This document shows, piece by piece, positions 1 to 20,876 of a stretch of DNA of 30,710 bases. The number at the start of each line of letters is the position of its first letter. The stretch's first letter is position 1. This DNA is from a virus (Duplodnaviria > Heunggongvirae > Uroviricota > Caudoviricetes): positions 1 to 30,710 of the IMG/VR virus record IMGVR_UViG_2529293040_000025. The stretch is one strand, 5' to 3'. A program made the translations under genes and the position numbers. A model generated the notes under the pieces. That model was not told where the DNA came from. It made no database searches and worked only from the letters and a program-made list of their open reading frames with translations.

Positions 1-420
1 ATGACGGATTATCAGCCATACAGGAAAGGAACTGTGCTTGCCCCAACTGGACCATGCAATCATCTTCATGTGATTTGTAATGATCCTGTTTATTACCCCG
101 TTAACGATTGTTATTGTGTTTTAGTTGTTAATATTTCTAGTATCAAGGATGGTGTCCCCCACGATCCGTCTTGCGTCTTGAATTCTGGTGATCATCGCTT
201 TATCAAGCATCCAAGTTATGTTGTTTACGCTGAAGCTATAATTTGGCGAGTGGATAACATGGTTAGAAAGCAGCGATCGGGTGAGATTTCTGTTCATGAT
301 GATATGCCAGAAGCTACATTCAATAGAATTCTGGACGGTTTTGATATCTCTGATGAAGTTACGCCAAAGAACCTTAAATTTAAAAATAAATATTGCGTAT
401 CATCTATTGATGATGAGTAA
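1..420 (+). CDS. hypothetical protein, Cys/His-rich, AT-rich gene; may be 5'-truncated by the window edge
   Basis: ORF-track ORF of 139 aa. Markedly AT-rich compared with the rest of the window. Convergent to the early-left operon. No family recognised. Confidence 0.4.
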   Translation: MTDYQPYRKGTVLAPTGPCNHLHVICNDPVYYPVNDCYCVLVVNISSIKDGVPHDPSCVLNSGDHRFIKHPSYVVYAEAIIWRVDNMVRKQRSGEISVHDDMPEATFNRILDGFDISDEVTPKNLKFKNKYCVSSIDDE

Positions 421-459
421 ACAACAGGAATTGTTTCGGTATAACTTCTGGAGTTTTCT

Positions 460-633
460 ATGGAAGATCAAAAAGCAACCAAGCCACAGGTTAAGTTCGA
501 CACAATGAAAGCATTCGTAGGTATGGGTGCTGCTGTTGAAGTTCTGATGAAGGCTGCTCCTAATGCGTTCACTCACGCTACTGTCTCTGGTAAAGAGCAG
601 CAGGGTAAGCTTCGTCGTCTCAAAGCAGCATGA
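460..633 (+). CDS. small hypothetical protein (57 aa)
   Basis: ATG at 460 preceded by GGAG with about 6-nt spacing; ends TGA at 631-633 just before a hairpin terminator. Below the ORF-track size cutoff. Translation MEDQKATKPQVKFDTMKAFVGMGAAVEVLMKAAPNAFTHATVSGKEQQGKLRRLKAA. Confidence 0.3.
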   Translation: MEDQKATKPQVKFDTMKAFVGMGAAVEVLMKAAPNAFTHATVSGKEQQGKLRRLKAA

Positions 634-652
634 TCATAGCTGGTGCTTTTTG

Positions 653-678
653 AAAACCCGCCTTCAGGCGGGTTTTTT
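653..678. terminator. bidirectional rho-independent terminator between convergent genes
   Basis: GC stem CCCGCC / GGCGGG with loop TTCA, preceded by AAAA and followed by TTTTTT, so it can terminate both strands. Confidence 0.6.
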
Positions 679-680
679 CT

Positions 681-962
681 TTAGTGATTTTCTTTGCCCT
701 TCTGTTTGACTGTTCTGACCTGTTCCCACTCGATACGTCCTTCTTCTCGCCTTTTGTCTATGTATTCCGCAAGATCCTGAATATTGATGCAACGTTTTGC
801 TTTTTGTGATGTGCCGATGCGATATGTTGGAACGGGCAACTTACAAGCGTTTGCTTTTGCTTCTGCCGTGGCTGGACTCATACCAAAGTACTTTTGGCTA
901 ACTGCTGAGAGTTCAATGTTTGGGGTATTGAATTCAGCCATCAGTAAAAACAAGGTGTTCAT
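681..962 (-). CDS. PrtN-family (pyocin activator-like) small DNA-binding protein
   Basis: Translation MNTLFLLMAEFNTP...LPVPTYRIGTSQKA...DLAEYIDKRR resembles the PrtN family as recalled. Start chosen at the internal ATG with GGAG 6 nt upstream; the ORF-track ORF extends to 989. Confidence 0.55.
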   Translation of the reverse strand: MNTLFLLMAEFNTPNIELSAVSQKYFGMSPATAEAKANACKLPVPTYRIGTSQKAKRCINIQDLAEYIDKRREEGRIEWEQVRTVKQKGKENH

Positions 963-17179: not shown

Positions 17180-17256
17180 CCGCCATTAGCTCATCGGGAT
17201 AGAGCGTCAGCCTTCGAAGCTGGCTGTGCGGGGTTCAAGTCCCCGATGGCGGTCCA
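17180..17256 (+). tRNA. argN: tRNA-Arg (anticodon TCG)
   Basis: 77 nt; acceptor stem CCGCCAT/ATGGCGG; T-loop TTCAAGT; anticodon loop CTTCGAA; ends CCA. Confidence 0.8.
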
Positions 17257-17269
17257 TTATCAGCATCAT

Positions 17270-17346
17270 GCGTTGTTAGCTCAGTCGGACAGAGCAATTG
17301 CCTTCTAAGCAATCGGTCACTGGTTCGAATCCAGTACAACGCGCCA
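17270..17346 (+). tRNA. argO: tRNA-Arg (anticodon TCT)
   Basis: 77 nt; acceptor stem GCGTTGT/ACAACGC; anticodon loop CTTCTAA; T-loop TTCGAAT; ends CCA. Confidence 0.8.
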
Positions 17347-17436
17347 TATTTATTTACTTGGCTCGCTTTTGCGGGCCTTTTTTTGTATCTGCGTTACACC
17401 ATTAACTAATAAATCGAGTGCTTATCAGGAGGCTAT

Positions 17437-17661
17437 GTGAAAAAACTGATGGTGACGATTGGTCCGTTCGAAACAGAAGTTAGTTTTCGTGTTGTTCAGG
17501 GGGAGAGTGTACTTGTTGAAGATGTATTTCATGGAAAATCAACAGGTCCTTATGTAAAAGAATATCTTATCGACGCCACGGATGAAAATATTGAGGTGGT
17601 GTACGATTCCGTCAATCACCCTGATTTGATCATTAAGGCAAAATTGAAGCCACTTTATTGA
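17437..17661 (+). CDS. small acidic hypothetical protein (74 aa)
   Basis: GTG start 4-5 nt after AGGAGG. Lower GC than the flanks. First gene of a cassette bounded by duplicated terminator-like motifs. Confidence 0.45.
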   Translation: MKKLMVTIGPFETEVSFRVVQGESVLVEDVFHGKSTGPYVKEYLIDATDENIEVVYDSVNHPDLIIKAKLKPLY

Positions 17662-17713
17662 TCTGACCGGGAGCAATCATAAAATATCTCTGGGTACCCA
17701 CAAGGAGATAAAT

Positions 17714-17923
17714 ATGTTTGTTTCTGAAGTGTTAATGGAAGATAAGGACAACAAAGGATGGGTTAAAGGTTGGGCTGTGGTAAGAAGCTCGCCCTGGCAT
17801 CTTGTTGGGGTTTTTGCGACAGAGGAAGACGCAGAAACGGAAGCAAGAAAGATGGGAGATAAGTACGAGGTTCACTATGGCTCGCATCGAACAGGAAGTG
17901 ATGATTTTGTCTGGGGGGAGTAA
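17714..17923 (+). CDS. small acidic hypothetical protein (69 aa)
   Basis: Strong AAGGAG RBS 7 nt upstream; followed by a hairpin and T-run terminator-like motif. Confidence 0.5.
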   Translation: MFVSEVLMEDKDNKGWVKGWAVVRSSPWHLVGVFATEEDAETEARKMGDKYEVHYGSHRTGSDDFVWGE

Positions 17924-18112
17924 CAGTCGTTTAACCCCAGAATAATCCCGTAACTGAGGTCGCTATTGGCGGCCTTTTTTGTATCCGCGCCACGCCCGGC
18001 GCATATCAACCACAGAGCCTTTCGGGGGTGAGCTTACGGAGTGGTCAGTGTGACTTTCTCTGTGGGCAGATCGCTCCCGGGCGTTGGCTCACCCACCCAA
18101 AGGAACGTCACG

Positions 18113-18544
18113 ATGTTTGGTATTTTTGGTAAAAAAGCCCGCCGAGCGGCAGTGGAAATTAAAAAGTTTGAGAAACGTGATCTGGCACAGGCGGTTATTA
18201 ATGCTGCCTATCTGGTGGCCTATGCAGATGGTGAATGTGAGGCTTCAGAGAAAGCGAAGATCGAGCAGATCTTGCGTAACCAGCCTGCGTTGTCCGCGTT
18301 TACGTCAGAAATTAATGCGATTAGCGCAACCATTATCGGTCAGCTGGATACGAACTTTAAAATTGGTCGTCGAGCGGCATTGCGTGAAATTGAAGATGTG
18401 AAACACGATACGCGTGAAGCGGAAGATGTGCTGGATGTGGCGGTGGCCATTGCGGAGGCAGACGGCGAAATTGAGCCGGAAGAGCGCAAGGTGCTGGAAG
18501 AGATTGCCGGTGTTCTGGGTCTTCGTCTGGAGAATCACCAGTGA
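18113..18544 (+). CDS. TerB-like (tellurite-resistance TerB domain) protein
   Basis: Paired AAYLVAYADGECEASEKAKI and AVAIAEADGEIEPEERKVLEEIAGVLGL motifs typical of the TerB fold. Start at ATG 18113 with AGGA RBS; ORF-track start 18041 is an extension. Confidence 0.6.
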   Translation: MFGIFGKKARRAAVEIKKFEKRDLAQAVINAAYLVAYADGECEASEKAKIEQILRNQPALSAFTSEINAISATIIGQLDTNFKIGRRAALREIEDVKHDTREAEDVLDVAVAIAEADGEIEPEERKVLEEIAGVLGLRLENHQ

Positions 18545-18708
18545 CGGTAAAACTGCGCCTGGCTGTGGCTGCACTCCTGCTGTTTCTGGTGGTGATGGTG
18601 GATTTCACCAGCAGAATCATGTCGGTGCTGGCGGATGGGGTGCTGGTCTGCGGCATTGTGGTATTGCTGTGGCCGGTGATAAAAAGAAACAGCCTGCATA
18701 ATGCTTGA
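18541..18708 (+). CDS. small two-helix membrane peptide (55 aa) translationally coupled to the TerB-like gene
   Basis: GTG overlapping the TerB stop (GTGA). Translation VTVKLRLAVAALLLFLVVMVDFTSRIMSVLADGVLVCGIVVLLWPVIKRNSLHNA shows two hydrophobic segments. Followed by a T-run. Below the ORF-track cutoff. Confidence 0.4.
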   Translation: MTVKLRLAVAALLLFLVVMVDFTSRIMSVLADGVLVCGIVVLLWPVIKRNSLHNA

Positions 18709-19022
18709 TTTTTTTATTTGCTGTTTATTAAAAATACTACTGCATGGTGAATCCCCCTGTGCGGAGGGGCGATCAGCAACCAGGTATATGGGATAATCGC
18801 GGATTCAGGTGCTGATACTGAATTCACCGGGAGGCACCCGGCACCATGCTTTGCCGCAAAAGTGTTGTTTCTGTTTTTCTCAAACTATCATCGTTATCCC
18901 TTTATTTCCGGCTGCGCATGGCGTGGCCTTTTTTTTACGACCAGCCACTGGCAGATGGCCATCCTGTAATTTGATTCCGGTTCCGGCTTTTTAACTCTGT
19001 TCCTGTACACGGGAGAAATTCG

Positions 19023-20876
19023 ATGTCGATTAAACATTATGATGTTGTCAGGGCGGCGTCGCCGTCAGACCTTGCGGAAAAGCTGACACACAAACTGAAA
19101 GAGGGCTGGCAGCCGTTTGGTAGTCCGGTGGCCATAACCCCTTATACCCTGATGCAGGCGATTACAGCAGAAGGTGATGTGGTGGTCAGTGGTGCAACTG
19201 AGCCGGATTGGTACTACGTCATCGTACTGGCCGGGCAGTCCAATGCCATGGCTTACGGTGAAGGGCTTCCGCTGCCGGATTCATACGATGCTCCGGATCC
19301 GCGCATTAAACAGCTGGCGCGCCGCAGTACAGTTACGCCGGGTGGGGCTGCATGCAGATATAACGATATTATTCCGGCCGACCACTGCCTGCATGATGTG
19401 CAGGATATGAGTACGCTGAATCATCCGAAGGCAGACCTGAGCAAAGGGCAGTACGGCTGTGTCGGCCAGGGCTTACATATTGCCAAAAAACTGCTCCCGT
19501 ATATCCCGAATAACGCGGGGATCCTGCTGGTACCATGCTGTCGTGGTGGTTCGGCATTCACCCAGGGCGCGGAGGGGACATTCAGTGCGGACACGGGGGC
19601 CAGCCAGGATTCGGCACGCTGGGGTGTGGGTAAACCGTTATATCAGGACCTGATTGCGCGCACTAAAGCTGCATTACAGAAGAACCCGAAAAATGTGTTG
19701 CTGGCGGTGTGCTGGATGCAGGGAGAGTTTGACATGAGCGCCGCCACCCACGCACAGCAACCTGCGCTGTTTACAGCCATGCTGACACAGTTTCGTGCTG
19801 ACCTCTCCGTGTTTAACGCGCAGTGCCATGGTGGCAGTGCTGCAGATGTGCCGTGGATTTGTGGTGACACGACGTATTACTGGAAAAATACATACGCTAC
19901 CCAGTACGACACCGTGTACGGCGGGTATAAAAACAGGGAGAGTGAGGGCGTTTATTTTGTGCCCTTCATGACAGACGGTAACGGCGTCAATACCGCCACT
20001 AACGCACCGGCAGAAGATCCGGATATTCCGGCATCAGGATATTACGGTGCGGCATCGAGAACGAATGGAAACCAGGTATCATCAAACCGCCCGACACATT
20101 TCAGTTCATGGGCGCGCAGGAGCATTATTCCGGATCGTATGGCAACCGCTATTCTGAACGCAGCCGGGCGCACCTCAGCTTTCATCAGTGGTAAGGCACC
20201 GGAAATCAAACCCTCGCCCGGCGGCAACACGCCATCGGGGCCGTCTGAAGATGCATCCGTACGCACAATCTCCCTGTTGCCGACAGCCGGAGAGGCTGCT
20301 GCGCAGGGCTGGACCATTAAGGACGGCGGAATTCAGTTGTCGGGTGGTGTATTTAAGATCGCCAAGCAGAGCAATAAAACCTGGTCCCTGATGCATCCGG
20401 TGGATGACGCAGTCTCCCTGCTGACACGGGGTGGCAGACTGAGCTGTAAGTTTCGACTGTCAGGCGCACTGACCAACAACCAGTTCGGCCTGGGAATTTA
20501 TCTGTATACCGATGTAGCGTTACCTGACGTCGTGGCGATGACCGGGACTGGTAACCCGTTCCTGATGTCGTTCTTCACCCAGACCACAGACGGCAAACTG
20601 AATCTGATGCATCACAAGAAAGCAGGAAACACAAAGTTGGGCGAGTTCGGGAATTACAGTAATGACTGGCAGACGCTGGAACTGGTGTTCACCGCCGGCA
20701 GTGCCACGGTTACTCCGAAACTGAATGGAGTGGCTGGCCCGGCATTCCAGGTCATAAAAGACAGTCTGACACTGGGGCTGAATGCGCTGACGCTGACGGA
20801 TATTACCAAAAATGCAGCGTATGGCGTTGAGATAGAAAGTCTGGTGCTGGAGATAAATGCACCGGCATCATCATAA
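19023..20876 (+). CDS. nanS: prophage sialate O-acetylesterase NanS-p-like (DUF1737 N-terminus plus SASA esterase domain)
   Basis: GQSNAMAYGEG catalytic-serine motif; 617 aa; sits between the tRNA/moron region and the lysis genes, where NanS-p paralogues lie in Stx phages. Confidence 0.75.
   Translation: MSIKHYDVVRAASPSDLAEKLTHKLKEGWQPFGSPVAITPYTLMQAITAEGDVVVSGATEPDWYYVIVLAGQSNAMAYGEGLPLPDSYDAPDPRIKQLARRSTVTPGGAACRYNDIIPADHCLHDVQDMSTLNHPKADLSKGQYGCVGQGLHIAKKLLPYIPNNAGILLVPCCRGGSAFTQGAEGTFSADTGASQDSARWGVGKPLYQDLIARTKAALQKNPKNVLLAVCWMQGEFDMSAATHAQQPALFTAMLTQFRADLSVFNAQCHGGSAADVPWICGDTTYYWKNTYATQYDTVYGGYKNRESEGVYFVPFMTDGNGVNTATNAPAEDPDIPASGYYGAASRTNGNQVSSNRPTHFSSWARRSIIPDRMATAILNAAGRTSAFISGKAPEIKPSPGGNTPSGPSEDASVRTISLLPTAGEAAAQGWTIKDGGIQLSGGVFKIAKQSNKTWSLMHPVDDAVSLLTRGGRLSCKFRLSGALTNNQFGLGIYLYTDVALPDVVAMTGTGNPFLMSFFTQTTDGKLNLMHHKKAGNTKLGEFGNYSNDWQTLELVFTAGSATVTPKLNGVAGPAFQVIKDSLTLGLNALTLTDITKNAAYGVEIESLVLEINAPASS

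Follow-up and report, generated by a model that had tools for sequence, protein, structure and literature searches.

A probable PanA-PanT toxin-antitoxin cassette at the left edge of a dusA-integrating lambdoid prophage

Panacea antitoxins (PanA) are described as pairing with many toxin families (PanT), the pairs being defined as genes on the same strand, at most 100 nucleotides (nt) apart, whose pairing is found in at least two species and lies outside a longer conserved operon (Kurata et al. 2022, PNAS; PMC8832971). Here, we analyze the left edge of the IMG/VR virus record IMGVR_UViG_2529293040_000025 (hereafter the window, meaning the whole stretch of 30,710 nt). The open reading frame (ORF) at its left end, ORF1 (positions 1-420, + strand, 139 amino acids (aa), ATG start), very likely encodes the PanT toxin of a two-gene, type II PanA-PanT toxin-antitoxin (TA) cassette, carried as cargo by a dusA-integrating lambdoid prophage.

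The closest described pairs form cluster T6 in Dataset S1 of that study (PMC8832971), in which the antitoxin gene precedes the toxin gene with overlaps of -4 or -1 and the PanAs are of the "noNTD" kind. The toxins listed in T6 come from Yersiniaceae bacterium 2016Iso4 (WP_101821906.1), Pantoea septica LMG 5345, Proteus vulgaris, Pluralibacter gergoviae, Methyloprofundus, Beggiatoa, a Bathymodiolus symbiont, and alpha- and betaproteobacteria. Only a subset of the predicted PanAT pairs was validated, with one T6 member among them: the PanT of Pseudomonas moraviensis (WP_083201923.1, paired with PanA WP_083354365.1) is toxic in Escherichia coli, is neutralised by its own PanA, co-purifies with it, and specifically inhibits 35S-Met incorporation, i.e., translation. 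T6 PanT also presents HHpred similarity to EndoA/PemK/MazF (PMC8832971).

A preliminary description of the window had recognised no family for ORF1. This does not stand: the ORF1 homologue of Chimaeribacter coloradensis 2016-Iso4 (locus L006; 55% identity by tblastn, 57% by BLASTP), which is the strain entered in T6 as Yersiniaceae bacterium 2016Iso4, is WP_101821906.1, and given this protein is listed as a T6 toxin, ORF1 belongs with cluster T6. Another of the loci with ORF1 homologues, L007, is from Pantoea septica LMG 5345, a strain which is also listed in T6.

The antitoxin gene lies almost entirely beyond the window. Positions 1-1000 recur with 100% identity in E. coli O103 RM8385 and in five other complete genomes, and at least 80% of these positions are present in 193 of 5426 E. 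coli genomes. In RM8385 (locus L001, 5432-6004), a gene for a 190-aa Panacea domain-containing protein ends at window position 4, and a Panacea gene (Panacea/DUF4065) is likewise annotated directly upstream in every E. coli match that starts at position 1, among the matches listed. This gene, panA, would extend from window position -568 to 4, so that only its stop codon falls inside the window, and the ORF1 start codon (1-3) overlaps its TGA stop (2-4) in an ATGA motif at positions 1 to 4 of the + strand. The RM8385 PanA matches Pfam PF13274 SocA_Panacea with E 2.2e-19 and 70.9 bits (cut-off 25.7); apart from short extensions at the N- and C-termini, the latter a tail of 53 residues, the protein is a standalone Panacea domain. 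Hence ORF1 and its downstream neighbour ORF2 (460-633, + strand), which had been presented as one two-gene unit, do not form it: ORF1 (panT) comes second in an operon that opens with panA, outside the window. Extending the window leftwards through the matching genomes, as had been proposed, thus yielded the 5' partner and the ATG start of ORF1, and no convincing promoter.

The pairing is conserved well beyond E. coli. In a scan of one genome per species, 32 loci with ORF1 homologues were obtained from gamma-, alpha- and betaproteobacteria (Enterobacterales, Methylococcales, Beggiatoa-like, Sphingomonadales, Rhizobiales, Burkholderiales and Sutterella). A PanA homologue lies immediately 5' on the same strand in 30 of them (phmmer E 1e-114 to 1e-13), the remaining two loci being truncated by contig ends. 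Relative to the point where the alignment of the ORF1 homologue begins, the PanA ORF ends between 10 nt inside and 77 nt ahead, with a spacing of -4 in many loci, and the genes 3' of the homologues are not conserved. The overlap of -4, the pairing across three proteobacterial classes and the variable downstream genes are therefore what the definition of Kurata et al. describes. The pair also occurs in temperate phages of Yersinia, Klebsiella and Pseudomonas; in the P2-like Pseudomonas phage Sirocco, it lies near the genome end, by the portal gene. ORF1 homologues are about 130-150 aa long, without a Pfam domain; ORF1 matches phrog_19071 (E 3e-31), and searching 1.84 billion representative proteins with a family profile returned 2692 representative clusters at E<=1e-3. 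Interrupted copies of the cassette were observed in E. coli 90-3040 and 7_33_46A, one matching just window positions 1-141 and the other matching in two pieces with 87% coverage, a sign that the toxin gene may decay on occasion.

ORF1 is a complete gene. The preliminary description had allowed for its being just the end of a longer gene; such a fragment is ruled out by a stop codon in the same frame, 8 codons 5' of the ATG. The annotated starts differ, since RefSeq/PGAP begins the toxin gene at a GTG at position 34 (WP_014640052.1, 128 aa), and the GenBank phage records MT225100 and OR670062 begin it at the ATG at position 1. The GTG start would drop 11 conserved N-terminal residues, including the beginning of strand 1. 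Given the N-terminus MxxYxPYRKGT is kept in homologues, with G10 invariant, and strand 1 of the structural model begins at residue 10, the ATG at position 1 is the genuine start codon. In a protein clustering at 90%, PanA (190 aa), PanT (139 and 128 aa) and a 232-aa "DUF4065 domain-containing protein" were placed in a single cluster, probably an artefact of a read-through or fused gene call over the ATGA overlap.

As had been noted from its translation, ORF1 is rich in Cys and His (6 Cys and 6 His, 8.6%). The structure prediction which had been suggested gave a confident AlphaFold2 (AF2) model, with a predicted local distance difference test score (pLDDT) of 90.1 and a predicted template modelling score (pTM) of 0.83. 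Each of the best 50 Foldseek matches of the model is a MazF/Kid chain (best E 7e-3, probability 0.89-1.00), with target-normalised template modelling (TM) scores of 0.50-0.62, and the predicted structure is an SH3-like barrel of the CcdB/MazF superfamily. No such relationship emerged from sequence. PF02452 PemK_toxin matched neither ORF1 at E<=1 nor any of 111 family members at E<=0.01; scans of ORF1 against the Pfam, NCBIfam and PADLOC libraries returned chance-level matches (ICMT, DapC) or nothing; and a sequence search of the PDB with the family profile returned nothing meaningful and no MazF. When the 111-member family was compared by hhalign with a thin MazF/Kid/EndoA profile, whose three template sequences all match PF02452, the probability was 0.45%, i.e., no signal. 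Because of this, the relationship to MazF rests on the predicted structure and on the published HHpred similarity.

Among the 111 divergent family members, H21, C58 and H65 are 97-100% conserved, H21 being invariant (100%); L22, D55, C58, G63, H65, F67, S72, Y76, G113 and S117 are at least 94% conserved; and position 47 is Ser or Thr in 97%. The catalytic pair of E. coli MazF consists of R29, at the start of strand 2, and T52, at the end of strand 3. His21 and Ser/Thr47 would be at positions analogous to this Arg and Thr, as judged by secondary-structure register only. We infer as candidate catalytic residues His21, where strand 2 begins, Ser/Thr47, where strand 3 ends, and three residues of a long conserved loop (Asp55, Cys58 and His65), a set that differs from the classical Arg/Thr pair of MazF.

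Several points weigh against the assignment of ORF1 as a PanT toxin. The classical catalytic Arg is not kept, as the ORF1 family has no conserved Arg. The link between ORF1 and a validated toxin runs via the clustering of Kurata et al. and not via a direct alignment: the P. moraviensis PanT sequence was not found in the supplements, and a profile search of a set of 5.8 billion proteins had no match named P. moraviensis among its best 120. The exact E. coli PanA and PanT accessions were not found in the supplements of both Panacea papers, the coverage of which was incomplete. Toxicity, neutralisation, complex formation and the translation block are known from the P. moraviensis pair rather than from the E. 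coli pair, to which they would extend by analogy. The presence of panA in the window's own genome is deduced from genomes with the same left end. Upstream of panA, the search for a promoter or operator gave just a weak TTGACC-17-TAAACT match, at chance frequency; this region has one 9-nt palindrome, and no block conserved with Kosakonia or Pluralibacter. Finally, no model of PADLOC-DB v2 matches PanA, ORF1 or ORF2 at E<=1.

These points have to be set against what other readings of ORF1 would require. The pair might not act as a growth-arresting TA system in E. coli, and ORF1 could be a non-toxic MazF-fold protein that binds nucleic acid or has a regulatory role, or a decayed remnant, simply co-inherited with the Panacea protein; the limited validation of predicted PanAT pairs by Kurata et al., with one T6 member among those tested, and the truncated or interrupted copies in some E. 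coli genomes would be in line with this. We nevertheless regard it as unlikely, given gene order and overlap are strictly kept across three proteobacterial classes, ORF1 is intact in most of the 193 E. coli genomes, and H21, D55, C58, H65 and S72 are invariant or nearly so over more than 100 divergent members, which argues for an active site under selection. The same residues bear on the mode of action. Metal-independent RNases typically carry an invariant His with a conserved Ser/Thr and Asp, and the invariant His and conserved Ser/Thr and Asp of the ORF1 family fit this class rather than a PanA-neutralised toxin which acts like CcdB, on gyrase or another non-RNA target and without cleaving RNA. 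All better structural matches within the shared superfamily fold are, moreover, MazF/Kid RNases, and the validated T6 member blocks translation selectively, and not replication, by metabolic labelling (PMC8832971). A CcdB-like mode is thus very unlikely.

A different reading keeps to the unit originally described, with ORF1 and ORF2 forming a functional two-gene cassette for defence or exclusion in which ORF2 is the partner or immunity protein. The two genes are indeed adjacent, on the same strand, 39 nt apart and ahead of a common terminator, are probably co-transcribed, and both encode phage-associated proteins without an assigned function in PHROGs. However, ORF2 was not found near the ORF1 homologues in any of the 32 loci from other taxa, and is absent 3' of PanAT in the Yersinia, Klebsiella and Pseudomonas phages. 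In E. coli O157:H7, Salmonella, mEp460, Enterobacter and Hafnia, it occurs without ORF1, and a phrog_4350 gene of 177-179 aa invariably precedes it. Between the two ORFs lies a recombination breakpoint, at 447-450, and they also differ in G+C content (38% and 47%). ORF2 is accordingly part of a separate mosaic segment that begins at 447-450, with phrog_4350 as its usual partner, and a joint function with ORF1 is highly improbable. The PanA-PanT reading, in which the partner of ORF1 lies upstream, is the one followed below.

ORF2 itself (57 aa, ATG start) matches phrog_2741 over 57 of its 57 residues (E 1e-34). It encodes a basic small protein with an isoelectric point (pI) of 10, preceded by a GGAG Shine-Dalgarno sequence at 450-453, and its homologues, found in Enterobacterales only, keep the length of 57 aa down to 63% identity. 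AF2 gave a poor model of it (pLDDT 64), in which short helices span residues 15-37. On the evidence of the sequence comparisons, ORF2 is a genuine small gene that makes up the 3' half of a different mobile pair and was left in place when the PanAT cassette replaced phrog_4350; its co-transcription with panAT here is probably due only to this replacement. Neither ORF matches a structural or integration function of phages, which would have spoken against the cargo character proposed from the start.

The surroundings show where this cargo is placed. In Lys8385Vzw, the excised RM8385 prophage, the order is dinI(-), int(-), the attP region, panA(+), panT(+), ORF2(+) and the PrtN-family gene(-). In the lysogen, the PanAT cassette is about 250 bp from the 5' fragment of dusA, and the integrase is at the far end, adjoining dusA. 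A blastn comparison of the RM8385 locus with those of O157:H7 and mEp460 places the end of the left flank at L001 5238 (window -762) and the beginning of the right flank at window 447; the 3' end of the cassette falls at 421 to 446, as homology with prophages carrying other cargo restarts at 447-450. Both ORFs are on the + strand, opposite, as had been described, to the early-left genes. These begin with a gene of the PrtN/pyocin-activator family (681-989, - strand; PF11112, E 4e-23), which lies outside the module, is the last gene of the early-left operon and is annotated in RefSeq at the equivalent of window 681-962, and continue with a Rv2179c-like 3'-5' exonuclease gene (999-1574, - strand) and onward on the same strand.

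The module had also been described as much more AT-rich than the prophage backbone. This holds for ORF1, with a G+C content of 38.3%, and not for ORF2, which at 47.1% is just mildly AT-rich, the value for positions 681-30710 being 51.2%. The block 1-633 as a whole has 40.6% G+C, and only 9 of 602 sliding segments of 633 nt are as AT-rich. Composition and the comparison with related prophages agree with the original proposal of a compositionally foreign, exchangeable cargo cassette by the attachment site, transcribed opposite to the early-left operon.

Many E. coli genomes match the window only from position 447 or 450 on. In E. coli O157:H7, mEp460 and Salmonella, a 177-aa phrog_4350 gene followed by ORF2 occupies the site, with homology returning at 447-450, just 5' of the GGAG. 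In E. coli STEC316 (L039, 2401-3445), a different 157-aa Panacea protein is followed by a 182-aa phrog_13343 protein without ORF2, and homology returns at 712. The phrog_13343 protein has no PADLOC match; together with its Panacea neighbour, it is probably another PanA-toxin pairing, and therefore partner swapping would be visible at one prophage locus. Three alternative cargos are thus seen at the site: PanA with the T6 toxin, a different PanA with phrog_13343, and phrog_4350 with phrog_2741. Judging by these sequence comparisons, the att-proximal site is a hotspot of cargo swapping between conserved flanks, the att region on the left and the PrtN-family gene on the right.

The pair of phrog_4350 (177-179 aa) and phrog_2741 (57 aa) was observed at two prophage cargo sites, the att-proximal one and a site in the late region 5' of the holin genes. 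Copies are at L035 3271-4174, L037 2784-3687, L044 3274-4174, L041 3319-4174 and L048 3283-4174. In Enterobacter and Hafnia prophages, the pair lies 5' of the holin genes and, where it is recognisable, 3' of the Q antiterminator gene. The pair has no PADLOC match, and the single phrog_4350 copy scanned has no Pfam match. In Hafnia prophages (L041 2150-3109, L042 2051-3109), a gene with a RelA_SpoT domain lies directly 5' of the pair, between the antiterminator and holin genes; its product matches the PADLOC candidate defence family PDC-S33 (E 1e-112).

At the right end of the module, a hairpin at 652-677 forms an intrinsic terminator common to the convergent + and - transcripts, 19 nt past the ORF2 stop and 4 nt past the stop of the PrtN-family gene. 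Its 11-bp stem (GAAAACCCGCC/GGCGGGTTTTT, 6 G-C pairs) encloses the loop TTCA and is followed on the + strand by TTTTTTCTTT. The folding energy is -19.6 kcal/mol on the + strand (z -2.8) and -18.1 kcal/mol on the - strand (z -2.6). A terminator scan made a call on the + strand only, where the terminator is canonical; the tail on the - strand is just UUUUC. The shared bidirectional terminator of the preliminary description is therefore borne out in one direction, and is plausible though weaker in the other.

Taken together, a working model can be proposed. The panA and panT genes would be translationally coupled and transcribed in the lysogen from a cassette-borne promoter, independent of and opposing the repressed early-left operon, and the transcript would continue through ORF2 and stop at the hairpin. 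PanA would bind PanT directly and neutralise it; free PanT would cleave RNA, with a chemistry that we infer to involve His21, and translation would be shut down, as judged from the P. moraviensis T6 member and the fold. TA systems are a class often linked to phage exclusion. The cassette may serve to exclude superinfecting phages by abortive infection, or to stabilise the prophage, and a role in phage defence is plausible. A broader and rather doubtful proposal is that the att-proximal site of dusA-integrating lambdoid prophages is a dedicated anti-phage hotspot, in which the Panacea domain would sense a cue from an incoming phage and free a His-dependent MazF-fold RNase with an active site unlike that of classical MazF, leading to abortive infection, and phrog_4350/phrog_2741, with ORF2 as its remnant here, would be a second, previously undescribed module for defence or exclusion, mobile between two places, the att-proximal site and the Q-holin moron site.

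The identity of the window with the Stx1a (Shiga toxin) prophage of RM8385 is ruled out beyond the left end, as no complete E. coli genome covers more than 64% of positions 1-25000. No stxA-sized ORF is present between the Q gene (15800-16594) and the SASA/nanS-p-like esterase gene (19023-20876); the interval 16594-19023, the place of stx in Stx phages, has just a 167-aa ORF at 18041-18544. Given this absence and the coverage of 64%, the window prophage is a mosaic relative of the Stx1a phage Lys8385Vzw and not Lys8385Vzw itself.

The PanAT cassette is an expected instance of a published system, and its mechanism is not new. Its identification assigns three "hypothetical" genes in a widespread family of E. 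coli prophages and corrects the RefSeq start of the toxin gene. This family includes Lys8385Vzw, the Stx1a-converting phage of O103:H11, whose published description names no antitoxin. Placed by the attachment site, a TA cassette could keep the prophage stable or shut out rival phages in lineages of Shiga toxin-producing E. coli (STEC); if true, this would matter for how Stx phages persist and spread. Two PanA-toxin pairings at one site would also provide a natural system for the study of Panacea partner swapping.

In comparison with known systems, the att-proximal site resembles the cargo ("moron" or defence) hotspots of temperate phages in being a fixed place with alternative cargo. The hotspots of P2 and P4 are reportedly described by Rousset and colleagues (2022) as variable cargo sites of temperate phages; any anti-phage activity of the cargo at the present site is putative.

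SocA-SocB of Caulobacter, a type VI TA system, shares with the E. coli pair an antitoxin with the PF13274 SocA_Panacea domain. PanA does not, however, belong to SocAB, as it scores 14.4 bits against the SocA equivalog NF047745, with a cut-off of 190. SocB is an inhibitor of the replication clamp and is unrelated to the MazF fold of ORF1, and SocA acts as an adaptor for proteolysis. Direct binding to the toxin is, by contrast, what has been seen for the PanAs tested to date (PMC8832971).

MazF, PemK, Kid and EndoA (PF02452) are the best structural matches and, like the validated T6 PanT, are translation-inhibiting toxins of type II TA systems. They share with ORF1 the SH3-like barrel with a C-terminal helix that is predicted for it, and a layout in which strand 1 opens at a conserved Gly (Gly10 in ORF1) and a hydrophobic strand ends in Ser/Thr. 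ORF1 differs from them in a very short hairpin between strands 1 and 2, where MazF has a long S1-S2 loop, in its long and conserved loop at residues 48-71, in an additional helix at the C-terminus, and in conserved His, Asp and Cys that would replace the catalytic Arg, with no membership at the sequence level. Its antitoxin is a Panacea protein, whereas those of MazF and PemK are MazE and PemI.

The closest likeness is to the T6 PanA-PanT pairs. The P. moraviensis pair was scored "NotPhage", whereas the E. coli pair is in a dusA-integrating lambdoid prophage, and the E. coli panT, unlike its P. moraviensis counterpart, has an unrelated 57-aa gene between it and the terminator. In both T6 and E. 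coli, the gene for a Panacea-only ("noNTD") antitoxin lies 5' and a toxin gene of about 130-140 aa comes next, with an overlap of -4 or -1; the toxin has no CDD or Pfam match, yet a MazF-like fold; and the PanA N-termini are alike, with MIFSEQKVAQ in P. moraviensis and MFCEEKVAQM in E. coli.
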